A DNA stretch of 64,000 nt from Candidatus Nomurabacteria bacterium RIFCSPHIGHO2_01_FULL_37_25 (GCA_001786765.1 MFTH01000013.1:19974-83973), one strand, 5' to 3'. Shown: positions 3,795 to 64,000, numbered from the stretch's first letter. Notes: generated by a model not told the origin, from the sequence alone. Numbers and translations are program-made.

Positions 3795-5012
3795 ATGAAA
3801 ATACAAGACATACTTAGTGAAACATATGGAGCTCTCTCTGCCAACAAAGCGCGTTCTGGTCTTACTATGCTAGGTATCGTTATAGGTATCGCTTCTGTTA
3901 TTGCCATGATTTCTATAGGCAACGGGGCTAAAGCGTCTATCCAATCAAGTATTGAAGGGCTCGGCTCAAATCTTTTGACTATTCTTCCGGGGATAGTCCA
4001 GCCCGGGAGAGGCATAGTTTCTTCTGGGCGTGGAGCGGCCCAAACATTGAAAAATGAAGACATTGACATTGTCAAAGCTATAGATGGAGTCGTAGCTGTT
4101 TCGCCAGAAGTCTCAAGCAGGTTTCAAATAATAGCATCAGGCAATAACACAAATACGACTATCACTGGAGTTATGCCGGATTACTTAATCGTGCGTAATA
4201 TAACTCTCTCAAATGGGAACTTCATCTCTGATGGAAATCAGAGAAACATCGGCAGGCAAGCAGTCTTAGGAGCGACCGTGGCGACTGACTTATTTCCTGA
4301 CCAAGATTCTGAAAATCTCTTGGGCAAAACCATCCGCATCAATAAAGTTAATTTTACTGTAATTGGAATATTGGTCGCAAAGGGCGGAACTGGATTTTCC
4401 AGTCCTGATAATATGGTTTTTGTTCCCCTCTCCACAATGCAAAAAATTCTCTCGGGAATGGATTATCTTTCTATGATGGCAGTATCTGTATCTGATAAAA
4501 ATAAAATGGCAGAAGTTAAAGATATGATAACTAATGCATTGCTGGAAAAACATAATGTAGCTGAAGCGGATTTTTCAATAATTTCACAAGAAGATATTTT
4601 AGGAACCCTAACTACCGTGATAGACACTTTTACTCTTTTCCTCGCGGCTATCGCTTCAATCTCACTTTTGGTTGGCGGAATAGGCATCATGAATATGATG
4701 CTGACAACTGTAACCGAACGCACTAAAGAAATCGGACTGCGAAAAGCAATCGGGGCAAAAAGAAAAGATATAAATCTGCAATTTCTTTCGGAAGCGGTAA
4801 TGCTAACATTTATCGGTGGATTTTTGGGAATTATTTTGGGATGGCTTATATCTTTTATAGTGACCTCGACCGGAATTCTCGCCACACAAGTCTCTCTCTC
4901 CTCTGTTCTCTTAGCCTTTGGTGTATCAGCAGGTATAGGTATTATATTTGGATACTACCCTGCCCGCCGAGCGGGTATGTTAAATCCAATTGACGCACTC
5001 CGCTATGAGTAA
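3795..5012 (+). CDS. ABC transporter permease, FtsX/MacB family
   Basis: N-terminal TM helix, large periplasmic domain and a C-terminal four-helix FtsX-like domain (…LTTVTERTKEIGLRKAIGAKRKDI…). Operon with the ATPase gene. Confidence 0.85.
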   Translation: MKIQDILSETYGALSANKARSGLTMLGIVIGIASVIAMISIGNGAKASIQSSIEGLGSNLLTILPGIVQPGRGIVSSGRGAAQTLKNEDIDIVKAIDGVVAVSPEVSSRFQIIASGNNTNTTITGVMPDYLIVRNITLSNGNFISDGNQRNIGRQAVLGATVATDLFPDQDSENLLGKTIRINKVNFTVIGILVAKGGTGFSSPDNMVFVPLSTMQKILSGMDYLSMMAVSVSDKNKMAEVKDMITNALLEKHNVAEADFSIISQEDILGTLTTVIDTFTLFLAAIASISLLVGGIGIMNMMLTTVTERTKEIGLRKAIGAKRKDINLQFLSEAVMLTFIGGFLGIILGWLISFIVTSTGILATQVSLSSVLLAFGVSAGIGIIFGYYPARRAGMLNPIDALRYE

Positions 5013-5030
5013 ACAATAATCCGCCTTGAC

Positions 5031-5050
5031 CAGGTCAAGGCAAGATTAGC
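5031..5050. repeat. Perfect palindrome GCCTTGACC-A-GGTCAAGGC, copy 1 of 2
   Basis: Seen directly. The same palindrome recurs at 18455-18477, both times just downstream of a + strand gene. Confidence 0.7.
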
Positions 5051-19173: not shown

Positions 19174-19392
19174 TTATAAAATTCCAAAATTCTCTCTTAC
19201 TAAAGCTGACTGCCGAATTATTGAATGAAGAGTCCCCATTGGAATTTCCTTTCTATTCGCTGGCACAATAGCAGTTATGTTTTTAAGACCTTGTTTTCGG
19301 AACTTTAAATGACTCCCTTTTTGAGATATAAAAACAAAATCATTATTTTCCAAAATTTTTACCACTTGCTTAGAAGATAAAAGCTTAGGCAT
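19174..19392 (-). CDS. hicA: HicA-family toxin (mRNA interferase)
   Basis: MPKLLSSKQVVKILENNDFVFISQKGSHLKFRKQG…AIVPANRKEIPMGTLHSIIRQSAL matches the HicA motif (…GSH…VP.H…GTL..IL.Q…). Overlaps hicB by 8 nt. Confidence 0.8.
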   Translation of the reverse strand: MPKLLSSKQVVKILENNDFVFISQKGSHLKFRKQGLKNITAIVPANRKEIPMGTLHSIIRQSALVRENFGIL

Positions 19393-19603
19393 AGTTAAAA
19401 GCCAAAGGGATAAGTTCAGCACTTTTCACTTCTTGTATTTTAGGAATTTTTACATCTTCAAAATATAGATCTAAAGCTTCACTTAGATTTTTTAGAGATT
19501 CTTTTTTGGTTTTACCAAAACTGGAAATATCAACGTTTAAACACTGAGAAATGTAGTATCTCCCTTCCTTCCAAACTATATTTTGTAAATTAAATTTCTT
19601 CAT
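19385..19603 (-). CDS. hicB: HicB-family antitoxin
   Basis: 72 aa, …EGRYYISQCLNVDISSFGKTKKESLKNLSEALDLYFE…, a HicB/UPF0150-like fold, directly upstream of and overlapping hicA. Confidence 0.65.
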   Translation of the reverse strand: MKKFNLQNIVWKEGRYYISQCLNVDISSFGKTKKESLKNLSEALDLYFEDVKIPKIQEVKSAELIPLAFNYA

Positions 19604-19659: not shown

Positions 19660-19911
19660 CTATCTTGTTAAACGGGATAGACGAGATTTTTTGCGAGCGG
19701 CGTTGTTTTTTTTGATGACATTCTTTTTAGCCGCTTTGTCTATTATCGCAAAAGCTGAACTTAACATTTTGAAAGCTTCTTTTTTGTCTGTTTTAGAAAC
19801 TTTCTCAATTTTCTTTATTATCTCCTTCATCGCGCGCTTGCGACTATTATTGGAAGCCTGTCTGCGGAGAGAACCTCGAATTGCTTTTTTAGCTGATTGT
19901 GTTATTGGCAT
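19660..19911 (-). CDS. rpsT: 30S ribosomal protein S20
   Basis: MPITQSAKKAIRGSLRRQASNNSRKRAMKE…IKKNNAARKKSRLSRL is a typical S20. Confidence 0.85.
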   Translation of the reverse strand: MPITQSAKKAIRGSLRRQASNNSRKRAMKEIIKKIEKVSKTDKKEAFKMLSSAFAIIDKAAKKNVIKKNNAARKKSRLSRLTR

Positions 19912-20079
19912 CCCGTACGAAATAGGACGCGTACGCTTACGCTATATTTGTCCTTTTGGTTAATTGTAATAAATTTTATCATTCTCATAATCTTTTTATT
20001 TTATGCGTCCGCGATTTCGTTCGGGATTGGCATAGATGTAATCTAGCAGAAAATCCAAAAAAATGCAATTACAATACTT

Positions 20080-20222
20080 TGAATCACAAAACTTTAAAAA
20101 TATAACTTTCTGCAAGGGTTTCGAGGCTGGCGAGCCGAGAACTTCAGAATTTTTTAAGCTTCGAAAAATTCGTACCGGAAGAAAGTTGATATTTTAGAGT
20201 TTTGTGATTAACGATATGCTAT
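20080..20222. repeat. Nested-hairpin repeat element, copy 1 (A-type arms aatcacaaaac…gttttgtgatt)
   Basis: The core GGGTTTCGAGGCTG-N-CGAGCCGAGAACTTCAG-R-ATTTTTTAAGCTTCGAAAAAT-Y-CGTACC is shared with three other loci. It is flanked by roughly 30-bp inverted arms. Confidence 0.8.
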
Positions 20223-32903: not shown

Positions 32904-33032
32904 ATCACAAAACTCATAAAAATATCAACTTTCTTCCGGTACGGATTTTTTGAAGCTTAAAAAATCCTGAAGTTCTCGGCTCGACAGCCTCGAAACCCCT
33001 GCAGAAAGTTATATTTTTAGGGTTTTGTGATT
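32903..33032. repeat. Nested-hairpin repeat element, copy 2 (A-type arms, inverted orientation)
   Basis: The reverse complement carries aatcacaaaaccctaaaaatataactttctgcaGGGGTTTCGAGGCTGTCGAGCCGAGAACTTCAGGATTTTTTAAGCTTCaAAAAATCCGTACCggaagaaagttgatattt. Lies between the polA stop and the next gene start. Confidence 0.8.
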
Positions 33033-33037
33033 CACGA

Positions 33038-35470
33038 TTATTTAACTTCTCCGAAATTGTTACCAAAACCAGAATGCACTTCGAGAGGAATGTCGGTTTT
33101 ATAATGTAAATATGATCTCTCTAGCACACCGTTCATAGCGTTTTTTATTATTTTATCAGCTTTTGACAATACACTTTCTTCTATTTCATAAACTAATTCA
33201 TCATGAATTTGAAGCACAAGATGAACTTTATCTAAAATTCCCGCCTTTTTAATATCCTCTTCTATATACCTTATGGCAAGCTTGATAATGTCAGCCGTGG
33301 CAGTACCTTGAATCGGCGCATTAGTGGCAGTACGTTCTGCCATATTTTTCAAAAATGGAATTTTAGAATTTATATTTGGGAAATATCTGCGTCTGCCAAA
33401 TAAAGTCTCAGTAAAAGATTTTTCTCTCGCAAATTTCTTTACTTCTTCTAAGTAATTTCGCACTCCCGAGAATTGATTGAAATAATTATCATAAAACTTT
33501 TGCGCTTCCTCGCGTGTATTTTCCCGTCCTCCAGCGTGGCCTCCGAGGTTTTTCCGCAGGGCTGTTACCCCCATACCATAAATTATGCCGAAGTTTATCA
33601 CTTTCGCTTTACGACGCATTTCGCTGTCTACTTTTTCTATCGGCACACCGAAAACGAAAGACGCTACGCCAGCATGCGGGTCTTTTTTCTCACGAAAAAT
33701 CTGCGTCATTTTTTTATCATTAGAGAGCATCGCCGCCACCCGGAGCTCGATCTGGCTGTAATCAAAAGCGCAAAGCTTGTAACCTTTTTGCGCCACAAAA
33801 CCATTTCGAATTCTTTTACCCAATTCTGTCTTTATTGGTAAATTTTGCAAATTTGGATCTTGAGAAGAAAATCTTCCTGTTGTTGAACCATTTTGTAAGA
33901 ATTTTGCATGTAATCTATTGTCAACACCAACCATTTTTGGAATCACATCAATATAAGTAGAGAGTAATTTTTGTAATTCCCTATAAGCAAGTATTTCTTT
34001 TACTATCGGGTTTGTTTCTTCTAATTCTTCTAAAACTGAAACCTTAGTGGAAAAAGAACCGGTAGCATTTTTCTTTTTACCAGACTTCATGCCCATCTTG
34101 CCAAAAAGCACTTCGCTCATTTGTTTGGGTGAGTTGATGTTAAACTCAGTACCTGCCATTTTATAAATTTTATATGTTAATTTATCTAATTCTTTATGAT
34201 ACTCTTGTGAGAGTTTCTCAAAATATTTTTTGTCTATTAAAATTCCATAATCCTCCATCTCTTTTACTATATGCATTATTGGACGTTCTATTTCTTCAAA
34301 AACTTTATCTAGTTTGTCATCCTTTAACTTTTTGAAAATATAAGTGTAAGCAACATCAAATGAATCAGTATTGGCAAACATTAAAATATCTTCTAGTTTT
34401 GGATTTGAAATATCAGAATTTATAAGCCAAAGAGCAATGCTGGCTTCTTGAAGCTTTTGAAGCGAAATTGATTCCTTATTTCCCTCCTGCACCTCACCCG
34501 GCCTTTCGGCCACCCTCTCCTTAGTAAGGAGAGGGGCTGGGGGTGAGGTCTTCTTTTCTCCAAAAAAGCTTTTCAGCCTTGCAAACAAAGAGCGGAATTC
34601 AAAAAGCTGAAAAATTTGTTCTATTTTTTTTAAATCCGCATTTTCCCAAAAAGTTTTTGCAGGCAGAATAAAATTTATCGTTGCGTCTGTCCGAATAGTC
34701 GCCAAAGTTTTAGAAAAAAGCGCTTCTTCTTCATTATTTTTCAAAAGTTCTATTACCCTAGGACTAAAACCAGCTTTTATAAAAGACTCCTCGTCTTTCT
34801 TAATTTTTTTATAAATTTCTTCAACCGCGCCGAAATTTAAAATTAAACTCGCCGCTGTTTTTTCGCCAATTCCTTTGATGCCAATAATATTATCCGACGG
34901 GTCGCCCCGGAGTCCTTTGTAGTCCGGCAAAAATTTCGGCCCGAAACCAAACCGCTCCACAACTTTATTTTCGTCATATAAAATAGTGTCATTGATTCCC
35001 TTCTTCAGGGTGTACACTTGAACTTTTTTGTCATTTATCAATTGCATAGTATCCATATCACCCGAAGCAATGATGATTTTTAAATCATTATTCTGTTTGT
35101 ATTTAGAAACAATTGTTCCGAGCACATCATCTGCCTCAAAGCCTAGAGCGTCATAAATAGGCACATTGAAAGCTTCAAAAATCTGGCGAGATTTTTTTAA
35201 TTGCATAACCAAAGCTTCATCAGTCTTGGCTCGACCAGCCTTGTAAGCGTCATACGCTTCGTGCCGAAAAGTCTTGCCGGGCAAATCATAACAAGCAACA
35301 ATATAATCCGGCTTCAAGTCATCTATAATCTTCATTAGCATTGTGGAAAGACCATACAATGCTCCAGTAGGTTCACCTTTAGATGATAAAAATTCCGGCA
35401 AGGCATGATAAGCGCGATGTATTATTGCATGAGCATCTAGTAATACGAGAGTTTTAGTATCTTTGGACAT
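33038..35470 (-). CDS. polA: DNA polymerase I (5'-3' exonuclease plus polymerase; no obvious 3'-5' exo motifs)
   Basis: N-terminal 5' nuclease (LVLLDAHAIIHRAYHALP…), HhH, and a polymerase domain with DYSQIELR and …QIHDELV… motifs. Contains an in-frame low-complexity insert encoded by a GC-rich palindrome (next feature). Confidence 0.9.
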   Translation of the reverse strand: MSKDTKTLVLLDAHAIIHRAYHALPEFLSSKGEPTGALYGLSTMLMKIIDDLKPDYIVACYDLPGKTFRHEAYDAYKAGRAKTDEALVMQLKKSRQIFEAFNVPIYDALGFEADDVLGTIVSKYKQNNDLKIIIASGDMDTMQLINDKKVQVYTLKKGINDTILYDENKVVERFGFGPKFLPDYKGLRGDPSDNIIGIKGIGEKTAASLILNFGAVEEIYKKIKKDEESFIKAGFSPRVIELLKNNEEEALFSKTLATIRTDATINFILPAKTFWENADLKKIEQIFQLFEFRSLFARLKSFFGEKKTSPPAPLLTKERVAERPGEVQEGNKESISLQKLQEASIALWLINSDISNPKLEDILMFANTDSFDVAYTYIFKKLKDDKLDKVFEEIERPIMHIVKEMEDYGILIDKKYFEKLSQEYHKELDKLTYKIYKMAGTEFNINSPKQMSEVLFGKMGMKSGKKKNATGSFSTKVSVLEELEETNPIVKEILAYRELQKLLSTYIDVIPKMVGVDNRLHAKFLQNGSTTGRFSSQDPNLQNLPIKTELGKRIRNGFVAQKGYKLCAFDYSQIELRVAAMLSNDKKMTQIFREKKDPHAGVASFVFGVPIEKVDSEMRRKAKVINFGIIYGMGVTALRKNLGGHAGGRENTREEAQKFYDNYFNQFSGVRNYLEEVKKFAREKSFTETLFGRRRYFPNINSKIPFLKNMAERTATNAPIQGTATADIIKLAIRYIEEDIKKAGILDKVHLVLQIHDELVYEIEESVLSKADKIIKNAMNGVLERSYLHYKTDIPLEVHSGFGNNFGEVK
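34492..34549. repeat. 58-bp GC-rich nested palindrome inserted in-frame in polA (copy A)
   Basis: cctcacccggcctttcggccaccctctccttagtaaggagaggggctgggggtgaggt. A near-identical copy lies intergenically at 59677-59734. It encodes the …SPPAPLLTKERVAERPGEVQ… linker of PolA. Confidence 0.8.
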
Positions 35471-45995: not shown

Positions 45996-46026
45996 ACCAT
46001 TTTTATTATACTACACCCTTTATCAT

Positions 46027-46161
46027 GAATTACGAAACTCGTCGAAGGCATGTCTTTTTTAGGGGGTTTCGAGGCTGTCGAGCCGAGAACTTCAGGATTT
46101 TTTAAACTTAAAAAAATCCGTACCCTAGAAAAAGACATGCCTAGAAAGAGTTTCGTAATTC
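46027..46161. repeat. Nested-hairpin repeat element, copy 3 (B-type arms gaattacgaaactcgtcgaaggcatgtcttttt … aaaaagacatgcctagaaagagtttcgtaattc)
   Basis: Same conserved core as copies 1, 2 and 4. The right arm supplies the last 7 codons plus the stop of the downstream IMPase-family gene. Confidence 0.8.
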
Positions 46162-46905
46162 AAAGTTTATCAGCTTTTTAATCTGGTCATAAATCATGGC
46201 ATTGCTAGCAATAATTCCCTCTGTGGTAGAGGTTAAAGCCTCACCATTGAAATCAGTAAACTTTCCACCAGCCTCTTCTACTAAAAGCTTCCCGGCAAAT
46301 TCTGGAAATGTATCATAATTAAAAGAAATAGCAAAATCCGCCCTACCACAAGCCACATAAGCGTAATGCACTCCCAGAGAACCGAGGTTCCTCATCACGC
46401 TACTATTTTGCGATAAAATGGAAATGGTTTTTAAAAATTTTTCTCTGTGCGGAGGAACTGCGTATGGACCAATCATAAAAATCATGTCTTGATTGCGCTT
46501 AGAAACATAAACTCTTTTATTATTTAAAAATGTTCCTTTGCCTTTTTCTGCGGTAAATAATTCTTTATTGGAGGGATCATAAACTACCGCAAACTGCGTT
46601 TCTCCTTTATAAAGATGACTTAACACCACCGAATAGTGAGGCATGCCTTGAATAAAATTTATTGTATTACTAATAGGATCAATGATCCAGACATTTTCAT
46701 CTTCAATAAAAATATTGTGCATCTCTTCAGCATAGACTGAATGAGCGCCCGGAAAAGTATTTATCAGATTAGCAAGTTCTGTTTCTATTTCTATATCTTT
46801 CTGCGTCAACCATTGTTTGCTTTTCCCTACATCAAGGGTATGTCCCGCAATAGCCGGAAGTGAGTCCCCAAGCTCAACTATTTTTTTAATTATTTCTTGA
46901 TACAT
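46141..46905 (-). CDS. Inositol monophosphatase family protein (SuhB/ImpA-like)
   Basis: …VWIIDPISNT…; …HSVYAEE…; C-terminal …YAYVACGRADFAI… metal-binding motifs. Confidence 0.8.
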   Translation of the reverse strand: MYQEIIKKIVELGDSLPAIAGHTLDVGKSKQWLTQKDIEIETELANLINTFPGAHSVYAEEMHNIFIEDENVWIIDPISNTINFIQGMPHYSVVLSHLYKGETQFAVVYDPSNKELFTAEKGKGTFLNNKRVYVSKRNQDMIFMIGPYAVPPHREKFLKTISILSQNSSVMRNLGSLGVHYAYVACGRADFAISFNYDTFPEFAGKLLVEEAGGKFTDFNGEALTSTTEGIIASNAMIYDQIKKLINFELRNSF

Positions 46906-54439: not shown

Positions 54440-55537
54440 TTATCTATTCATCGGCATTATAAGATAAAGAAATGATGTATCCCCCACTGAAGACACCACT
54501 ATGGGGTTGCTAGGACCAAAGAATTTTATAGATATGCTATCGGTAATGATTGACTGGAAACAATCTAAAAAATATTTGTAATTAAAACCAAGCTCAACAT
54601 TTTCTCCTGTTATGGCGGCATCCAAATATGTTTTATTTTCTCCGATATCATTATTGGAAGACGAAAGCTCAAAAATTTTTTCTTTTGGTTTAATAACCAG
54701 ATTTACTTGATTAAATTTACCTGAAAAGATATTGGAAAGTTTAAGCGCGTTTAACAGGTCTTGTTTTAGCACTATGGCATTAGTTCCTGAAGTTTTGGGG
54801 ATGATTTGACGATAATCTGGAAAAACTCCATCAATTACCCGCGAAGTTAGATAAAAATCATCGGACGAAAAAGAAATTTGGTTTTTGTTAAAACATACTT
54901 TTATAATCGAAGTGGATTCCCCAAAAACTCGGAGTATTTCAGAAATATTTTTAAACGGAATAAGAATACCTGCTATTTCAGGAAGTCCTTTTATTTTTAT
55001 TTTTTTCTCAGACAGCCTAAAAGAGTCTGTGGAAACAAAAACCAAGTTGTCCTCATTTGTATATATAAAAACGCTTGAAATTTCAGGTTTTATATCAGAA
55101 ACAGAAGAGCTGTAATAAACTGATTTTATTCCCTCTATTAATTTTTTTGATTCTATTTCAAAACTTGTTCCCACCACCTTCGGTATTGTTGGGAAGTCTT
55201 CGTGCGGTTGCCCTTTTAGTTTTATCTTGCTTTTTTTGGTTTGGATGAGTAAATTACCATCAACACTTTCCAGATAAATATTTTCATTTTGAAAAACATT
55301 GGAAAAAATGCCATTTAATACCGACCCAGAAACCGCGACAATGCCTTCTTTTTCTATTTTTGCTGGAATTTCAACCTCAATACCAAGACTCAAGTTTGTA
55401 GATCTAAGTTTTAAAGATTTTAGAGAGGCAATAAGTAAAATTGAATTTAAAATCGGTAAAGTTAAATTTTTACCTGTAATTTTTTCCACTTGTAAAATTT
55501 TATTTTTTATTTCTTCAATTTTGCATTCTAGTTTCAT
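54440..55537 (-). CDS. dnaN: DNA polymerase III beta subunit (sliding clamp)
   Basis: 365 aa, three-domain clamp pattern, N-terminus MKLECKIEEIKNKILQVEKITGKN…LPILNSILL. Lies immediately downstream of dnaA. Confidence 0.85.
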   Translation of the reverse strand: MKLECKIEEIKNKILQVEKITGKNLTLPILNSILLIASLKSLKLRSTNLSLGIEVEIPAKIEKEGIVAVSGSVLNGIFSNVFQNENIYLESVDGNLLIQTKKSKIKLKGQPHEDFPTIPKVVGTSFEIESKKLIEGIKSVYYSSSVSDIKPEISSVFIYTNEDNLVFVSTDSFRLSEKKIKIKGLPEIAGILIPFKNISEILRVFGESTSIIKVCFNKNQISFSSDDFYLTSRVIDGVFPDYRQIIPKTSGTNAIVLKQDLLNALKLSNIFSGKFNQVNLVIKPKEKIFELSSSNNDIGENKTYLDAAITGENVELGFNYKYFLDCFQSIITDSISIKFFGPSNPIVVSSVGDTSFLYLIMPMNR

Positions 55538-55786
55538 CCCGTTTAGAAGTTTTCCTGATTTTACTTAATTTTATTAAATAATATCAGATAACTTGAATTA
55601 TTTTTTTTTATAATCTTTCCCCGAAAGGTATCTTCTAACGGGATTCATGTTTATATTTTATATATTTAATTTATTAATACTATTAGATACCTTGATAAGT
55701 GGATAACTCGTTTTGTTTTTAATTTATAAAGCTATTTTTTAATTTTTGTTTTTAATTTAAGTCTAATAACTTATAATAACTTTTAT
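55538..55786. promoter_or_regulatory. AT-rich dnaA-dnaN spacer with a paired DnaA-box-like site and the TCTAACGGGATTCAT motif; possible second oriC module
   Basis: TTGATAAGTGGATAAC at about 55692-55707; TCTAACGGGATTCATG at about 55642-55657; very AT-rich. Confidence 0.45.
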
Positions 55787-57130
55787 TTACTTAAACATAA
55801 TTCGTATTTGCTCCAGTTCTTGTAAAAGTTGTGAGTCGTTTTTGAGATCGTTTTTAATTTTTATACAGGAATGTATTACTGTTGTGTGGTCTTTCCCGCC
55901 CAGCTTTTCCCCAATCAACGGATATGATATATTAAAGTCTTCTCGAAGTAAATACATAACCACTTGTCTTGCTTTGACGATATCTTTTTTTCTGGTTTTT
56001 TCATAAACTGAAGCTTCTTCTAATTTATAATATTCACTCACTATTTTCACAACATCTTTTATTGCTATATTTTTTTTAGGCTTCATGTTGTTTTTTAGCA
56101 AGTTTTTTACTTCAATGAGAGTTAAAGGCTTGTTTTTCAAGCGATAATGGCAAACTATAATATTCAAACTCCCCTCAAGCTCTCGAATATTGCCATCTAC
56201 CGACAGAGCCACATACTCTAGTATTTCTTGGTCTAGGTCAATATCAAGTTCTTTTAATTTTACTTTTAAAATCGCAAGACGAGCCTCATACTCTGGCGGA
56301 GAGATATCTACTATCATTCCGGCCGCAAAACGAGACTTTAAACGGTCAGCCAATTCCGGAATGTAATTTGGATGTTTATCAGAAGAAAAAATAATTTGCT
56401 TGTTATTTTCGTGAAAAGTGTTGAATGTGTGGAAAAGTTCTTCCTGAATTTTTTCCATTTTGCCGATGAATTGAATGTCGTCTATGATTAAGAGGTCGTA
56501 TTTGCGATATTTTTCTTTAAAAGAATTTGCTTTATTGCTTTGAAGCGAGCTGATAAAATCAGTAGCGAATTTCTCCAAAGTCATATAGTGGACCTTTTTG
56601 TTTGGGTATTTATCTTTTATTGAATTTCCTACCGCTTGAATTAAATGAGTTTTACCGAGACCGGTGCCTCCATAGATAAAAAAAGGGTTGTATTTCGTGC
56701 CGGGATTATCTATTATGGCGAGACTCGCGGCGTACGCGAGCTCGTTGAAAGTTCCCACAATAAAAGAATTAAAATGATAGCGCGGATTCAAATTATTTTC
56801 TGGATTTATGTAAAGATCTCGCAAGGGCAGTTCTTTGTTTACGCTTGTTTCTATTATTGTTGTCGTTTTTTCTTTATTGTTTTCTATTTTAGTGATGGTG
56901 TATTCCACTGCGCGCATATTTTCATACGCATCGGCTATGGTTTTTGTGATAAGTTTGTGGTATTTATTTATGAGCCAATCGCGAACAAACTCATTTGGCA
57001 CACCAATATAGATGATGCCTGTGTCTTCTTTAACAATGGATGTATTTTTAAACCACGTGCTGAAATTTGCCTTTGACATGCCCGCCTCTATTTCTACCAG
57101 ACAATTTTTCCAAAGCTGTGTTGTGTTCAT
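55787..57130 (-). CDS. dnaA: Chromosomal replication initiator protein DnaA
   Basis: AAA+ Walker A GGTGLGKTHL; DnaA signature regions; C-terminal DNA-binding domain (…VVMYLLREDFNISYPLIGEKLGGKDHTTVIH…). Confidence 0.95.
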   Translation of the reverse strand: MNTTQLWKNCLVEIEAGMSKANFSTWFKNTSIVKEDTGIIYIGVPNEFVRDWLINKYHKLITKTIADAYENMRAVEYTITKIENNKEKTTTIIETSVNKELPLRDLYINPENNLNPRYHFNSFIVGTFNELAYAASLAIIDNPGTKYNPFFIYGGTGLGKTHLIQAVGNSIKDKYPNKKVHYMTLEKFATDFISSLQSNKANSFKEKYRKYDLLIIDDIQFIGKMEKIQEELFHTFNTFHENNKQIIFSSDKHPNYIPELADRLKSRFAAGMIVDISPPEYEARLAILKVKLKELDIDLDQEILEYVALSVDGNIRELEGSLNIIVCHYRLKNKPLTLIEVKNLLKNNMKPKKNIAIKDVVKIVSEYYKLEEASVYEKTRKKDIVKARQVVMYLLREDFNISYPLIGEKLGGKDHTTVIHSCIKIKNDLKNDSQLLQELEQIRIMFK

Positions 57131-57311
57131 CCTATTAGAAAGCGACTAAATAATAATTTTACTATTGACCATGCCCCGTAAATTTCTAACGGGATTCATT
57201 AGTCTCATATTATACTATTTTTGTTTAACAAAAAAACTCTTGTAAATAGATGAAAACTTATTAACTCTGTTGATAAGCTGTGGATAAAAATTTTAGATTC
57301 TAAGTCACTTT

Positions 57312-57446
57312 GAATTACAAAACTCGTCGAAGGCATGTCTTTTTTAGGGGGTTTCGAGGCTGACGAGCCGAGAACTTCAGGATTTTTCAAGCTTCGAAAA
57401 ATCCGTACCCTAGAAAAAGACATGCCTAGAAAGAGTTTCGTAATTC
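57312..57446. repeat. Nested-hairpin repeat element, copy 4 (B-type arms), inside the oriC region
   Basis: gaattacaaaactcgtcgaaggcatgtcttttttaGGGGGTTTCGAGGCTGaCGAGCCGAGAACTTCAGGATTTTTcAAGCTTCGAAAAATCCGTACCCtagaaaaagacatgcctagaaagagtttcgtaattc. Confidence 0.8.
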
Positions 57447-57510
57447 ACGACTTAAGTCAGTATAAAAAAAGTAGGCATATCTCACGGTGGAGACACGCCT
57501 GATTGATTGG

Positions 57511-57562
57511 ACGCCGCGAATTCTAATTTCGAATCGGTTAAGTAGAATTCGCGGCGTTTTTT
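57511..57562 (+). terminator. 15-bp perfect hairpin (ACGCCGCGAATTCTA … TAGAATTCGCGGCGT) plus T6; terminator-like, upstream of rpmH
   Basis: Seen directly. No + strand gene lies upstream, so it may terminate a transcript coming from the repeat or oriC region, or act as a structural element. Confidence 0.5.
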
Positions 57563-57665
57563 AGATAAAAAATCACCCCCTTTCATTCCCAACTCAACAA
57601 ATATATTCTCGTACAGGTATTATGTCAAGTTGCTGAATGTTTATTTTTGTTGTAATATCAAATAT

Positions 57666-57800
57666 ATGTCATTTACATACAAACCTAAAAAAAGGAAAAG
57701 AGCCAGAAGCCACGGCTTTTTGGTCAGATCTAGGAGCAAGACCGGAAAGAAAGTCCTTAAAAAAAGACGTCAAAAAGGCAGAAAAAAGCTCAGTGTTTAA
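57666..57800 (+). CDS. rpmH: 50S ribosomal protein L34
   Basis: MSFTYKPKKRKRARSHGFLVRSRSKTGKKVLKKRRQKGRKKLSV matches L34. Not in the ORF track because it is below 60 aa. Confidence 0.85.
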   Translation: MSFTYKPKKRKRARSHGFLVRSRSKTGKKVLKKRRQKGRKKLSV

Positions 57801-57802
57801 TA

Positions 57803-58126
57803 ATGCTATCTAAAAAAAACAGAGTAAACACAAAAGAGGTTAAGAAAATCTTTACAAAAAGTAGCTTTTTAAATTCTCCCAGTTTTACCTTTAGATATTT
57901 TAAAAACAACAATAAAGAAATAAAAATTTCTTTTATTGCCTCTAAAAATATAGCCAAGCTGGCTGTTAAGAGGAATCTGCTTAGAAGACGAGGATATTCT
58001 GTGTTGAAAAAGTATATTCATGAGTTCCCTCTTGGAATTATAGGTGTCTTTATATTTAAAAAATATCAAGATGATATTTTGACAATTGAAAATGAAATTA
58101 AAAACATACTTAATAAAATCAATTGA
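57803..58126 (+). CDS. rnpA: Ribonuclease P protein component
   Basis: 107 aa, basic, immediately after rpmH. …FRYFKNNNKEIKISFIASKNIAKLAVKRNLLRRR… matches the RnpA pattern. Confidence 0.8.
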   Translation: MLSKKNRVNTKEVKKIFTKSSFLNSPSFTFRYFKNNNKEIKISFIASKNIAKLAVKRNLLRRRGYSVLKKYIHEFPLGIIGVFIFKKYQDDILTIENEIKNILNKIN

Positions 58127-58322
58127 TTTTTACCAAAAGTATTTTCCATTTTTCAAAAAACCAAGTTGTGTTTTTTATCCTACTTGTTCGGAATATACTA
58201 AAGAAGCGATAAATAAATATGGAATTATTAAAGGACTTCGCCTTTCTTTGCTTCGTATTTTGCGTTGTCATCCGTGGCAGAAGAATCATATTGATCCCGT
58301 TAGAAATCGCGAGGGCTCGTAG
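58086..58322 (+). CDS. yidD: Membrane protein insertion efficiency factor YidD
   Basis: …FFKKPSCVFYPTCSEYTKEAINKYGIIKGLRLSLLRILRCHPW…IDPV matches the YidD Cys motif. Overlaps rnpA, as is common. Confidence 0.85.
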   Translation: MKMKLKTYLIKSIDFYQKYFPFFKKPSCVFYPTCSEYTKEAINKYGIIKGLRLSLLRILRCHPWQKNHIDPVRNREGS

Positions 58323-58414
58323 CGACCCTCTATCTCTAACGGGATTGATCCTGTACAATAAATAATATTCAATTTCTTATTGAACTTTCTCCCGTTTTAA
58401 TATAAGATAAGAAA

Positions 58415-59173
58415 ATGCTCTCAAATATCTGGAATACTGTTTTATATGAGCCATTATTAAACGCGCTGGCTTTTTTAGTTTCAATTACCCCCGGCGAGGA
58501 TGTCGGTATTGCTGTTGTTATTCTTACTATTTTGGTTAAAATTATACTTTTCCCATTGTCTCAAAAATCCATTGAGAGTCAGGCAGAAATGAATATCCTT
58601 AGTCCGGAGCTTAAGAAGATAAAAGAAAGTGGAGCGAGTAAAGAAGAGCAAGCTAAACAAACTTTTGAGCTTTATAAAAAACACAAGGTAAATCCTTTTT
58701 CTGGATGTTTTTTGGTCTTGATTCAGATTCCTATTATTTTTGCTTTATACTTTGTTTTTTTAAAAGGAGTAAATTTTGAAGCCGGGGCGCTCTATTCTTT
58801 TATTCATATCCCAGAGCATGTGAATATGATTTTCTTTGGGGTTTTTGATATAAGCAAGGAAAATTTTGCCTTGGCGATTTTAGCAGGAGTGTCCCAGTTT
58901 TTACAAGCGCATTTTATGCCAAAACCCATTCTTTCTTCAAACACAAATGGTTCTATCGGTTCTTTTTCTGAGAGTTTTGCTAAAAGTATGCATATGCAGA
59001 TGAAATATGTTTTTCCAGTTTTTATTTTTGTTCTCTTATATACAGGAATTCCCGGGGTTGTTCCACCTCTTTCTGGAGCAGTTGCGTTGTATTGGATTAC
59101 AAGCAATTTATTTATGGTAGGTCAGCAGATTTATGTTAAAAAGGAGAAAAATTTTAAGATGGTAATTAAATAA
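58415..59173 (+). CDS. yidC: Membrane protein insertase YidC/Oxa1 family (short form)
   Basis: 252 aa with five TM helices. …ILVKIILFPLSQKSIESQAEM…ELYKKHKVNPFSGCFLVLIQIPIIFALY… is the 60-kDa-IMP core. Confidence 0.85.
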   Translation: MLSNIWNTVLYEPLLNALAFLVSITPGEDVGIAVVILTILVKIILFPLSQKSIESQAEMNILSPELKKIKESGASKEEQAKQTFELYKKHKVNPFSGCFLVLIQIPIIFALYFVFLKGVNFEAGALYSFIHIPEHVNMIFFGVFDISKENFALAILAGVSQFLQAHFMPKPILSSNTNGSIGSFSESFAKSMHMQMKYVFPVFIFVLLYTGIPGVVPPLSGAVALYWITSNLFMVGQQIYVKKEKNFKMVIK

Positions 59174-59189
59174 AATAATTTTAAACGAA

Positions 59190-59669
59190 ATGAATAAAGA
59201 TGAAATCCAAAATTTAATAAAAGAATTGATAGAAAAAACCACCATTAAACTCCATAAAATTTCTATTTCTGAGGAAAGTCCTACGAATACTTGGGTTTCT
59301 CTTGAGGTTAGCGAACCGCACTTTTTTATGGGTAATGATGGCGAGGCGCTTTATTCATTGAATCATCTTGTTCGCAGGATAATCGAAACTAAAACATTTC
59401 CAAGAAAAAAAGATGAAAACATAAACAACAATATCTTGATTGATATAAACGGTTTTCAAAAAAAGCGTGTGGAAAATATTCGCGCGGTAGCGCATATGAT
59501 GGCAGAGAGAGCAAGGTATTTTAAATCAAGCATAGAAGTTGACCCTATGTCAGCTTTTGAACGCAGGGTTGTGCATGAATTTTTATCTGATGCGACCGAC
59601 CTAAAGACAGAATCAATGGGTTTCGGACCCTCTCGTCGAGTGGTAATAAAATATATTGGCGCAATATAA
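59190..59669 (+). CDS. jag: Jag/KhpB-like RNA-binding protein (KH plus R3H)
   Basis: C-terminal R3H motif (…VEVDPMSAFERRVVHEFLSD…). Canonical position after yidC. Confidence 0.8.
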   Translation: MNKDEIQNLIKELIEKTTIKLHKISISEESPTNTWVSLEVSEPHFFMGNDGEALYSLNHLVRRIIETKTFPRKKDENINNNILIDINGFQKKRVENIRAVAHMMAERARYFKSSIEVDPMSAFERRVVHEFLSDATDLKTESMGFGPSRRVVIKYIGAI

Positions 59670-59676
59670 TTAAGAA

Positions 59677-59734
59677 CCTCACTCCGCCTTTGGCACCCCT
59701 CTCCTTATTAAGGAGAGGGGTCGGGGGTGAGGTG
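59677..59734. repeat. 58-bp GC-rich nested palindrome, copy B (intergenic, between convergent genes)
   Basis: cctcactccgcctttggcacccctctccttattaaggagaggggtcgggggtgaggtg, near-identical to the in-frame copy in polA. Confidence 0.8.
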
Positions 59735-59737
59735 TAG

Positions 59738-61126
59738 TTATTTCAATTCCAGTTTCCACAAAAAAGAATCTTTTTTATTTACAAAAAATAAATAATCTTC
59801 AGCTTCACTCAAGGCCATTTTTATACCATCAATTTCTTCAAATACAATTGCAAAAGGATCTAAAATTATTGTTGCGTTCCCGGTTTTTACATCTATTTTC
59901 CAAAGTTGGTCGCTGAAAGACACTTCCCCTTGATACCAGCTATCTGGATATTCGCCCGGGCTAACAAATTTTGGCACAGCGCAGTAGATAACATCATTTG
60001 CTTTACCCCAAACACATTTCTCTGGCAGAGTTCTTACTCCAAGCAGGTTAAAACTTCTACTGTTTATGTCATATATATACAAAGACAAATTATTGTTGCC
60101 GTAAAGAATCAGCTTTCCATCTGGACTTCCAAGTGTAGTCAATCCATTTATATCGCCTAAAATTTTACTAAAGTTTTTGCCTAAAGAATTTATCGTGTAC
60201 ATATATCCGGGAATATTTGCGGAAGGTTTTGTCGTCAGAGTAATTAAATTATTATTTGGCCAAAATGACAGCCATTCTGTAAAAGGAGAATCAAACACTT
60301 GTATTTTTTTATTGTTTAATAAATTCATAGTTATGCCTATCATATTGCTTCCTGAGTCACTATTACTCTCAAATAAATAGAAAATTTTTAAACCGTCGGG
60401 AGACATACTAATATCTCTGACATTATTAGGTAAGAAAGAGCCCTTAGCTTCATTATTTCCCGTTGTGTCTCCTCCTAATAATTCTTTTGGCAGGTTTCCG
60501 ACAAAAGTTTCTATGGTTTCCTCATCTGCTTTTAGATATCGCATAATAACAGATTCTCCCTTATTTCCAAAATAGGCTTCATACACTCTAGGTATTATCG
60601 TTACTGAAAACTTTCTTTCCTCTATTTTATCCACAAAAGTTTGAAAAATATTTCCAGTTGCTCTGTCCACATATCTTAAAGCAGGCGCGAATTCGGTTTC
60701 TGGCGGGGCTGGTTTAACTGACGCTTTTTTATTTTTTGTTTCCTTTTCTGGTTCTAGAGTATTTTCAATTAGCGGACCTGTTTCTGGCGCCACTATTGGC
60801 ACATCTTTCAACCTTTCTTTATTAAAAACGGTAAATCCCGCAATAGGCATACTTGAAACTCTGACAAGTTTTGCTTCCAGTGTTTCTGTTGTGACAGAAG
60901 GCTCATCTTCTGATATATCAAATGGAGGGGGTACAGGAGGAGGATTTGGTTTGCTTTCTCCAAATGGATTAAATTGTGAAATAAAGTTTGTGCCTGGATT
61001 ATCGTACTTCGGTATATTTGTTATATATCCTTTGAAATATAAAAACCAAAAAACTGCAACCACAATTATTAGCAAGATTATTATTAAAAGTGTAAAATTT
61101 CTTTTTGACATAGTTAATGATTCCAT
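59738..61126 (-). CDS. Membrane-anchored beta-propeller-like protein (PD40/TolB-like repeats)
   Basis: N-terminal TM helix, a Pro-rich linker (PNPPPVPPPF) and repeated …SPDG(K/L).I(F/L)Y… beta-propeller-like units. Confidence 0.45.
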   Translation of the reverse strand: MESLTMSKRNFTLLIIILLIIVVAVFWFLYFKGYITNIPKYDNPGTNFISQFNPFGESKPNPPPVPPPFDISEDEPSVTTETLEAKLVRVSSMPIAGFTVFNKERLKDVPIVAPETGPLIENTLEPEKETKNKKASVKPAPPETEFAPALRYVDRATGNIFQTFVDKIEERKFSVTIIPRVYEAYFGNKGESVIMRYLKADEETIETFVGNLPKELLGGDTTGNNEAKGSFLPNNVRDISMSPDGLKIFYLFESNSDSGSNMIGITMNLLNNKKIQVFDSPFTEWLSFWPNNNLITLTTKPSANIPGYMYTINSLGKNFSKILGDINGLTTLGSPDGKLILYGNNNLSLYIYDINSRSFNLLGVRTLPEKCVWGKANDVIYCAVPKFVSPGEYPDSWYQGEVSFSDQLWKIDVKTGNATIILDPFAIVFEEIDGIKMALSEAEDYLFFVNKKDSFLWKLELK

Positions 61127-63343: not shown

Positions 63344-64000
63344 TTAGCTAGGTGTCTGTCCTCTCTCCTGCTCTTCTTTGGCTTTTCTGTTTGATAATAT
63401 TTGCGAGGGATCAGAAGTGATAATCTGGTCTTCGGTGTAAGAAGCAATGACTTTTATGGCAACATGTTTTAAGCCTGCGAAAAATATGCCTTCCCCTACG
63501 CTAGACTCCAGAAGAAGATATTTCTCTTCGTCGGTAAGATTAAAAGTTTTCTGCAAAATATCAATGGTAGTGGGTGATTGTTCTAAGAGAAGCTGAATAG
63601 AAGAATTGGTAATTATTGGCACACCATAAGACGATTTCATAAAGTCAGACGCGTCTTGGGTGATAGTGGAAAGACCTAAATAATATTTTCTGCCTCTTTT
63701 TGCCATAGAATATAAAAATGACGCAGTGTCTTCGGACTTCATCATCCACCAAGCTTCATCAATAACCAGCAAGCGTTTTTTAAGATTTCTGCGGATAGCG
63801 TTCCAGATATAATGCATAATTATATACATCGCCACCGGTTTCAATTCGTCTTCCATATCACGCACAGAAAAAACAATAAAATTTTTATTAATATCCACAT
63901 TACTTGGTCTATTCAAAAATGTTGACCAAGAACCTTTTGTGTATTTCGCTAATCGCTGTAGCACGGAATCGCTTCCAGTCATCCCTCCTAGCACCATTTC
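63344..64000 (-). CDS. VirB4/TrbE-like type IV secretion ATPase, C-terminal part (gene continues beyond the window end)
   Basis: Walker B LLVIDEAWWMM. …RKYYLGLSTITQDASDF… is typical of the VirB4/CagE C-terminal motifs. The ORF is open to the window edge. Confidence 0.65.
   Translation of the reverse strand, partial: EMVLGGMTGSDSVLQRLAKYTKGSWSTFLNRPSNVDINKNFIVFSVRDMEDELKPVAMYIIMHYIWNAIRRNLKKRLLVIDEAWWMMKSEDTASFLYSMAKRGRKYYLGLSTITQDASDFMKSSYGVPIITNSSIQLLLEQSPTTIDILQKTFNLTDEEKYLLLESSVGEGIFFAGLKHVAIKVIASYTEDQIITSDPSQILSNRKAKEEQERGQTPS

Follow-up and report, generated by a model that had tools for sequence, protein, structure and literature searches.

A repeated motif around dnaA in a Candidatus Nomurabacteria genome: probable ends of a MITE-like element that rebuilds start codons

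The dnaA region and the copies of the motif

We analysed a stretch of 64,000 nucleotides (nt) from Candidatus Nomurabacteria bacterium RIFCSPHIGHO2_01_FULL_37_25 (GCA_001786765.1, MFTH01000013.1:19974-83973; the window hereafter), in which a short motif recurs around dnaA and very probably marks the ends of a miniature non-coding mobile element. The genes concerned are dnaN (54440-55537, minus strand, 365 amino acids (aa), with Pfam DNA_pol3_beta domains) and dnaA (55787-57130, minus strand, 447 aa, with Pfam domains DnaA_N, Bac_DnaA and Bac_DnaA_C), followed on the plus strand by rpmH (57667-57800), rnpA (57803-58126), yidD (about 58092-58322), yidC (58415-59173) and a jag-like gene (59190-59669); rpsT, encoding S20, lies at 19660-19911 on the minus strand. 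Independent metagenome assemblies of the source organism are 99.99-100% identical to the window across the overlap. None of the 53 long open reading frames (ORFs) of the window is preceded by a Shine-Dalgarno-like sequence and many of its genes have a TATAAT-like box ending 7-12 nt upstream of the ATG, a pattern that suggests that leaderless or near-leaderless mRNAs are widespread in this genome. For comparison we used the dnaA loci of 80 related species, that is 81 loci including the window; DnaA of the window is 83-91% identical to DnaA of these species-level Candidatus Nomurabacteria/Paceibacterota genomes, which places the window in the candidate phyla radiation (CPR). Fetched loci are labelled with L-numbers (L002, L053 etc.).

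The 11-mer core of the motif, TCTAACGGGAT, matches the 64 kb four times at up to one mismatch, where 0.76 matches are expected, and all four matches lie between 55634 and 58345. None of 100 shuffled sequences reached a count of four, which rules out a chance origin of the copies. An earlier note on this DNA had described a 15-mer present in both spacers flanking dnaA and proposed that it is a shared regulatory site, acting at the protein or RNA level, that coordinates expression of dnaA, dnaN and yidC. The repeat itself was seen correctly: a 16-mer, TTCTAACGGGATTCAT, is found without mismatch at 55633-55648 and 57184-57199, and the position 55642, given for one copy, is the end of an inner 10-mer and not its start. 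Several further observations of that note held, namely the mini-ORFs near the starts of dnaA and dnaN, a hairpin in the sequence that involves the CCCGT segment of the motif, a degenerate copy across the dnaN ATG (55538-55549) and an inverted motif pair at the 3' end of yidD (58294-58304 and 58335-58345), which forms a strong hairpin (z = -3.6). It had missed that each copy is one arm of an inverted pair between short direct repeats, that a degenerate partner arm adjoins the dnaA ATG (57131-57142), and that a full variant copy lies on the rpsT start codon (19912-20025).

The window contains four of these paired elements, all between direct repeats, with cores of 48, 63, 105 and 114 nt. The copy at the dnaA start (57131-57193, minus strand, 63-nt core) has an intact left arm, CCCGTTAGAAA, and a degenerate right arm, CTTTCTAATAGG. 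It is flanked by ATGAAT (57194-57199) and ATGAAC (57125-57130), the latter being the real start of dnaA. At the dnaN start (55538-55642, minus strand, 105-nt core) the right arm contains a one-base insertion, CTTCTAAACGGG, and the flanks are ATGAAT (55643-55648) and ATGAAA (55532-55537), which is the real dnaN start. The copy at the yidD 3' end (58296-58343, plus strand, 48-nt core) lies between two ATTGAT repeats (58290-58295 and 58344-58349); it changes the C-terminus of YidD to ...IDPVRNREGS and stop, and the displaced native end ATTGATCCTGTACAATAA (IDPVQ and stop) is found 3' of the element. The rpsT copy, on the minus strand with a 114-nt core, has the variant arms CCCGAACGAAAT and ATTTCGTACGGG and an 8-bp direct repeat, ATGCCAAT, as flanks on the gene strand. 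A fifth copy of the same genome is located about 2.3 kb past window position 64000 (L204, 6861-6980; flanks ATGCAT/ATGCAA), directly on the start codon of a PrgI-like gene, which makes five copies in 84 kb of the source genome. This PrgI-like gene belongs to a type IV secretion-like cluster that also contains TraC-like and TraG P-loop genes.

The mini-ORF at dnaA (57146-57199, minus strand, 17 codons, encoding MNPVRNLRGMVNSKIII) opens at the original, promoter-proximal dnaA ATG and reads into the element; a -10 box TATAAT (57209-57214, minus strand) lies 9 nt upstream of it. The mini-ORF at dnaN (55598-55648, minus strand, 16 codons, encoding MNPVRRYLSGKDYKKK) likewise opens at the original dnaN ATG. 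As for an internal promoter, the element gave no more than a single weak and uninformative match to the consensus (9/12), located in the dnaN copy. A scan of the whole window against Rfam 15 at gathering score returned four tRNAs only and no match to the motif.

Filled and empty sites and the nature of the element

In most of the 80 relatives the dnaA start reads TTATCCACAGnTTATCAACA...TAGTATAAT, then 8 nt, then ATGAATAC, with no insert. The -10 box ends 6-9 nt upstream of the dnaA ATG in 62 of the 81 loci and dnaA is therefore leaderless there. Alignment of a filled site, TATAAT...ATGAAT followed by the block CCCGTTAGAAGT...ACTTCTAACGGG and ATGAATAC, with an empty site, TATAAT...ATGAATAC, gives a clean insertion. 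The dnaA site is filled in the window, L003, L012, L041, L053 and L066 by a block of 63-77 nt directly after ATG[A/G]AT, and decayed relics adjoin the dnaA ATG in L010 and L034. About 75 relatives have no insert at dnaN and read ...ATATAAACAT-ATGAAACTAGAATG (also written ...TTATCCACTTATCAACAnnnCTAATAGTATTAATAAATTAAATATATAAAATATAAACAT-ATGAAACTAGAATG); a homologous insert at this start is present in L053 and L066. The yidD end is an empty site, ...HIDP[V/L]x and stop, in 73 of 76 relatives, and the element found there has opposite orientations in L053 and the window and is decayed in L002, the closest relative of the window. Intact copies within 4 kb of dnaA occur in only 8 of the 80 related species. 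The exact 11-mer is found in few of the relatives' loci and there always as an inverted pair 48-114 nt apart. Within the source organism no empty alleles were seen, as the independent assemblies that reach the copies all carry them.

A search of metagenome contigs with the pattern CCCGTTAGAAG-N47-77-CTTCTAACGGG yielded at least 134 copies in at least 120 contigs, with a GC content of the host contigs of 32-60%. Flank statistics were obtained on 133 of these copies and gene-context classes on 126 classifiable ones, and all metagenome counts given here and below hold among the matches listed. The general form of the element is Y-CCCGTTAGAAG...CTTCTAACGGG-R, in which the two arms enclose a variable interior with a length of about 4 to 200 nt, with an outermost Y/R pair that is complementary in 124 of the 133 copies and with variant arms that co-vary on both sides (TACGAAG/CTTCGTA). 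Flank positions 2-5 are alike on both sides in 102-110 of the 133 copies. The target duplication is mostly 4 bp with the consensus TNNA, and the target consensus, R-TNNA-Y, is roughly palindromic. Outside the window core sizes range from 26 to 128 nt, the minimal 26-nt versions being two arms back to back, and ORFs within the elements are short or absent. On the DnaA tree the carriers are dispersed, and sister species with empty sites fall between them. The 114-nt rpsT copy and a copy on the start codon of jag in L053 are about 90% identical and have different flanks, and L053 contains five copies in 9 kb, all at gene boundaries. In other genomes copies were found near topA, glyS, murG, metK, trpS, uppS, rplC, rplD, rplN and many more genes. 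A phage origin was rejected, as the arm pair had 0 matches in a viral contig collection.

In L110 two near-identical 78-nt copies (2902-2979 and 4966-5043) occur at a distance of 2 kb from each other, and their left flanks are identical over 10 nt. Among the genes of this contig, assigned by eye, are those for a PAS-domain-like protein, a response regulator and an MglA-like GTPase, and they do not look typical of the CPR. The host range of the element may therefore be wider.

We consider it highly probable that a mobile element, miniature, non-coding and similar to the MITEs (transposable elements of the miniature inverted-repeat type), has the motif as its terminal inverted repeat, and that the copies around dnaA are tolerated insertions and not designed co-regulation. 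Judged from sequence, the element has the characters by which a MITE is defined (PMC3184786): it is small and without transposase, has inverted ends and a target duplication, is present or absent at orthologous sites and also found at non-orthologous ones, and is dispersed; a parent insertion sequence was not found among the fetched loci and flanks. Several observations weigh against this reading. Firstly, the length of the duplication is not fixed, and duplications of 3, 5 and 6 bp occur as well, including that of the rpsT copy (TGCCAA). Secondly, diversity among the interiors is great, with many unrelated classes, and nothing but the arms is shared, which is less usual for a single MITE family. 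This diversity may leave room for a host factor or an RNA-level factor that recognises the arms. Thirdly, 200 fetched loci and 20 kb of extra flank of the source genome yielded neither an autonomous copy nor a transposase bounded by such ends; the search started from unpaired arms and allowed a distant partner up to 3.5 kb away with up to 3 mismatches, and it gave no convincing arm pair enclosing a gene. The 'CC' ends combined with a duplication of 4-5 bp are reminiscent of the IS1380 family, which may serve as a lead. Lastly, a segment of 2.8 kb contains three of the window's four copies (P = 0.02 under uniform placement), and simple mobility does not account for this clustering.

The same clustering speaks for a conserved cis-regulatory site, either an operator or an RNA motif or leader peptide, that serves dnaA, dnaN and yidC in a bipartite origin, and so do the local enrichment (four exact 11-mers within 2.7 kb around dnaA) and the presence of the motif in the 5' regions of both dnaA and dnaN. 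Yet about 72 of the 80 orthologous dnaA loci have no intact copy, and the conservation to be expected upstream of dnaA is missing, most relatives having leaderless dnaA and dnaN genes without the motif. Where the motif does occur, it is always paired in inverted orientation between duplicated flanks, and the corresponding sites of relatives are cleanly empty; it behaves as a generic dispersed repeat: it is not tied to the supposedly co-regulated genes and is also found at rpsT and at the unrelated genes named above, from topA to rplN. Neither does the mini-ORF encode a conserved peptide, as nothing is shared beyond the arm-encoded residues, and the motif has no Rfam match. The coordinating site proposed in the earlier note is thus refuted on grounds that this note itself had named, as the motif is a generic repeat and is lacking in most orthologous origin regions, and we consider it most improbable.

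A different possibility is that the arms are recognition sites of another system, such as REP/REPIN palindromes moved by a RAYT-type (IS200/IS605-like) tyrosine transposase, DNA-uptake sequences in inverted pairs or the sites of a site-specific recombinase. An 11-nt arm that is identical across hosts of 32-60% GC while the interiors are unrelated, minimal versions made of two arms alone and the lack of a DDE-type autonomous copy in the 200 fetched loci would all be compatible with this, but the regular target duplication, with positions 2-5 identical in about 80% of the copies, would not. REP/REPIN sequences are defined by the lack of a target duplication and by a linked RAYT gene, and to our knowledge neither REPINs nor IS200/IS605-type elements make duplications of this kind. 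Besides, five copies in 84 kb, never as single arms, is a density far below that of uptake sequences, and no RAYT-like or recombinase gene was present among the called genes of the flanks. Recognition by such a system therefore seems very improbable, and a MITE-like element remains our preferred reading.

The native yidD end ATTGATCCCGTTAAATAA already resembles the element terminus ATCCCGTTAGAAG over 9 nt (e.g. in L020, L049, L070 and L073). This likeness may explain the repeated hits at this site, which concern the window and L002, L053 (reversed) and L068 (a different short insert). The hot spot is seen only among close relatives, and the yidD 3' end was rejected as a universal hot spot, since 0 of the 134 metagenome copies lie behind the CHPW motif.

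Start codons and the expression of dnaA and dnaN

Of the 126 classifiable metagenome copies 52 (about 41%) adjoin the start codon of a long ORF that is not open upstream; the remaining ones are located at gene 3' ends (35), in frame inside ORFs (11) or in intergenic DNA (28). The junctions follow a simple rule. At the target A-TGAA-Y the left junction becomes ATGAA plus the Y of the element, by which the native ATG is kept, and at the right junction the R of the element (A or G) joins the duplicated TG and forms ATG or GTG directly before the gene. A start codon is kept at both junctions and the insertion therefore does not destroy the gene. Ten start-site genes were compared with NCBIfam: TopA, GlyRS, MurG, a RarA-like ATPase, MetK, TrpRS, UppS, L4, L3 and L14. 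The alignments begin at protein residues 1-5 in nine of the ten and at residue 16 in L4 (profile position 1), and the profile positions at the alignment start are 1-6 with the exception of the RarA-like match (position 16). These profile matches indicate true N-termini.

The association with start codons exceeds what the target consensus predicts. In rebuilt empty loci 1.25% of all RTNNAY sites, and 6.7% of those that are not intragenic, fall on start codons, compared to 41-45% of the observed copies (binomial P of 4e-64 and 2e-30, respectively). Target preference together with the removal of gene-disrupting insertions does not fully explain this excess, which may stem from most intergenic insertions being harmful as well in these compact genomes, from a preference of the element for start sites, or from such copies being favoured. 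The excess could also result from active targeting rather than survival, which would fall outside the mechanism described here and is a further point against tolerated insertion as the whole explanation. A restriction to leaderless genes was rejected, as only 14 of 54 start-site copies have a close upstream -10 box and internal genes of ribosomal operons are filled as well; the rule concerns the start codon, not leaderless genes. We put forward, tentatively and with considerable doubt, that the family is a start-codon specialist, with ends that evolved so that insertion into A-TGNA-Y rebuilds the start codon and with a machinery that prefers starts. If true, the element would turn leaderless or coupled genes of Shine-Dalgarno-free CPR genomes into a relay of hairpin and mini-ORF, a portable module for translational coupling, and some copies, such as those at dnaA and dnaN near the origin, would perhaps be co-opted to gate the initiation of essential genes.

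All 11 intragenic copies have a length divisible by 3 and are free of stop codons, which argues against removal at the RNA level, and intron-like RNA excision was ruled out on this ground. A 69-nt class adds 25 codons to the N-terminus of YidD in L012 (3246-3314), L031, L068 and L070. In-frame insertions yield the peptide signature PVRS...SNG. Two in-frame copies were noticed in L144 (6089-6115 and 8424-8450), where the 26-nt version adds PVRSDASNGV inside a protein that by eye is RsmA/KsgA-like.

At dnaA and dnaN the element would work as follows. Transcription would still start from the old promoter and ribosomes would still start at the old ATG, after which they would translate the short ORF of the element (M-N-P-V-R...) through the left arm. 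In doing so they would melt the terminal stem of 12-13 bp, in which the first bases of the real start codon would otherwise be paired. This codon, at the foot of the stem, would then be used by re-initiation or by fresh initiation. The net effect on both genes is probably close to neutral or a mild attenuation. In these largely leaderless, Shine-Dalgarno-free genomes such copies are kept even in essential genes.

The predicted fold of the dnaN leader agrees with such a relay. Its long-range terminal stem is the minimum-free-energy structure (z = -4.5), and the probability that the dnaN AUG is unpaired rises from 0.42 to 0.78 when the first 30 nt are held single-stranded as a stand-in for a translating ribosome. 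Other results count against the relay: the dnaA leader, of which the right arm is decayed, folds no better than shuffled sequences (z = 0.01), the same held-open test gives no gain in accessibility of the start codon at dnaA or rpsT, and the stop positions of the mini-ORFs vary. Mini-ORFs of the 76-, 79-, 82- and 94-nt classes often end at the TAA within the right arm, 4 nt upstream of the start codon. Mini-ORFs that end before the gene have 6-39 codons and three copies read through in frame into the gene. Their peptide recurs only as M-[N/D/G]-P-[V/E]-R, the arm-encoded part, and is not otherwise conserved. A uniform riboregulator model was dropped since the dnaA leader is not better than shuffles. 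Since the dnaA leader is unstructured, rpsT shows no gain and the mini-ORF ends vary, we propose the relay at dnaA and dnaN with modest confidence.

It is also conceivable that the copies at dnaA and dnaN are mobile in origin and now act as RNA-level attenuators, with a stem that sequesters the start codon. Attenuation could proceed via translation of the mini-ORF, via alternative pairing (CCCGU with an internal ACGGGG) or via processing of the stem by a double-strand-specific RNase. The stable stem in the dnaN leader covers the first bases of the AUG, which becomes more accessible with the 5' end held open, and a dnaN-site copy with a similar interior is kept in three distant species. The dnaA-site copies of the window, L041, L053 and L066 share the internal ACGGGG, an alternative partner of the left arm, but the dnaA right arm is decaying and its leader has no significant structure. 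Structure at the start site should weigh more in genomes without Shine-Dalgarno sequences, and RNase III is retained in these bacteria (PMC12641178). Still, most relatives manage with leaderless dnaA and dnaN and no element, and since dozens of unrelated genes have this arrangement as well, nothing about it is specific to replication genes. We regard this secondary function as unlikely, if possible; it would be compatible with the MITE-like element as an added layer.

Origin features, other repeats and relation to known elements

The earlier note had also placed paired DnaA boxes on either side of dnaA, and these pairs are conserved. Tandem boxes TTATCCAC-TTATCAAGG lie in the dnaA-dnaN spacer (55690-55706, minus strand), where a pair is present in 74 of 81 loci, and tandem boxes TTATCCACA-GC-TTATCAACA lie upstream of the dnaA promoter (57268-57287, minus strand), as in 81 of 81 loci. 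In the basal unwinding system the first box has up to two mismatches, the second up to four, and at least three NAN trios occur within 16 nt (PMC8287927). The spacer boxes, scored as TTATCCACT and TTATCAAGG, stay within these mismatch limits, and the upstream boxes TTATCCACA and TTATCAACA do as well. A run resembling DnaA-trios, TAA TAG TAT TAA TAA (55671-55685, minus strand), begins 12 nt past the first box and gives way to an AT-rich tract. In 71 of 74 loci the boxes are followed by a run of five or more NAN triplets, a start 12 nt after the first box being the commonest arrangement (33 loci), and in relatives the 3-nt periodicity of this region is kept while the bases change (e.g. TAATAATAATAATAA, GATGATGGTGATGAA). 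The number of trios is sufficient, yet this rule is lenient in AT-rich DNA, as the site upstream of dnaA also reaches 3-4. By its layout the dnaA-dnaN spacer looks like an origin unwinding module: it shares with the described system two tandem boxes, a 12-nt spacer, five NAN triplets and AT-rich DNA (PMC8287927). It differs in that it is known here as a sequence pattern alone, and it is unrelated to the TCTAACGGGAT motif inserted beside it. The dnaN-start element is inserted about 25 nt downstream of the box-trio module. Cumulative GC skew over the 64-kb window has no clear turning point at 55-58 kb and does not serve to place oriC.

A second repeat family, unrelated to the motif family, consists of a long hairpin of about 137 nt with the core GGTTTCGAGGCTGRCGAGCCGAGAACTTCAG... 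and has four copies that are 61-96% identical (20078-20214, 32919-33034 on the minus strand, 46026-46162 and 57311-57447 on the plus strand). The last of these fills much of the dnaA-rpmH spacer, and the family has no Rfam match. A third repeat, the hairpin CCCTCTCCTTAnTAAGGAGAGGG followed by GGGGTGAGG, occurs at 34505-34560 and 59689-59744 (80% identical), and similar sequences were found upstream of the DnaA boxes in the dnaA-rpmH spacers of L008, L009, L014, L047, L053 and L067. Between rpmH and dnaA a possible small RNA of about 120 nt (57473-57628, minus strand) has at 57628-57600 a strong match (11/12) to a promoter, TTGACA-17-TATATT, and at 57500-57473 a hairpin that resembles a terminator and ends in a T run; the candidate has no Rfam match. 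A hairpin with a T run is also present on the plus strand at 57510-57565. A sub-threshold match to Rfam AsdA, an antisense RNA of dnaA mRNA, was obtained at 56596-56674 on the plus strand (E = 0.0014, with 30.5 bits where the gathering score is 52). The Walker-A region of dnaA is on the opposite strand here, and the match is probably due to conservation of the coding sequence. A permissive Rfam scan of 55400-58500 (E <= 5) gave only this match in the coding sequence of dnaA and one to mir-268, likewise sub-threshold, that is presumably spurious. Beside rpsT two overlapping ORFs of 82 and 72 aa (19174-19603, minus strand) resemble a HicA/HicB-type toxin-antitoxin pair by eye.

Nearest to this element are bacterial MITEs in general and, for a co-transcribed hairpin, the Correia elements; in-frame tolerance in reduced genomes is best matched by Rickettsia palindromic elements, and a repeat with its own start codon by REP2 of Neisseria and the upstream repeats of Borrelia. 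The Correia elements of Neisseria (CREE) are short palindromes beside genes, too, which are co-transcribed and of which the mRNA hairpin formed by the terminal repeats can alter expression, but they duplicate TA, have ends of about 26 bp and contain IHF and promoter motifs. We know of no start-codon rule for them, and they have no sequence similarity to the present element. Like the bacterial MITEs as defined by Delihas (2011; PMC3184786), the element is small and without transposase, has inverted ends, target duplications, many dispersed copies and a stem-loop in the transcript, and its copies are intergenic, fused to gene ends or in frame inside genes. Unlike those, it has no parent insertion sequence that we could find, the interiors are unrelated with only 12-13 nt of the ends in common, about 41% of the copies lie exactly on a start codon that is rebuilt by the element end, and the hosts are ultra-small CPR genomes. 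Rickettsia palindromic elements (RPE; Ogata, 2000, cited in PMC3184786) are similar as palindromic selfish DNA in reduced, AT-rich genomes with in-frame tolerance. They are unrelated in sequence and host, measure 105-146 nt and have no known preference for start codons, whereas the present copies are mostly at gene boundaries. The upstream repeats of Borrelia and the REP2 repeats of Neisseria also lie directly upstream of genes and contain the ATG start codon (PMC3184786). In these the ATG comes in one cassette with a promoter and a ribosome-binding site, whereas the present element rebuilds the ATG from one base and the duplicated target, with no ribosome-binding site involved. No description of such an element in CPR, Parcubacteria or Patescibacteria was found in the searchable literature, and one beyond it is possible. 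None of the elements compared shares the ends, the host range or the rule by which the terminal base and the duplicated target rebuild the start codon; the MITE-like kind itself is known.

The motif repeated around dnaA and the origin invites a reading as a replication regulator, and its very probable identity as selfish DNA corrects this tempting misreading. CPR genomes are ultra-small and usually regarded as poor in mobile elements. Nonetheless, they host a widespread miniature family inside the start codons of essential genes, namely dnaA, dnaN, topA, and tRNA synthetase and ribosomal protein genes, and the regeneration of ATG or GTG by end and target accounts for the possible harmlessness of such insertions. 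Annotation is affected as well, since wrongly called starts, N-terminal extensions that are false (MNPVRS...), altered C-termini (as in YidD) and in-frame PVRS...SNG inserts are predicted for many CPR proteins. Lastly, sister species offer the same gene with and without a 5' hairpin and mini-ORF and provide a natural test of Shine-Dalgarno-free translation start.

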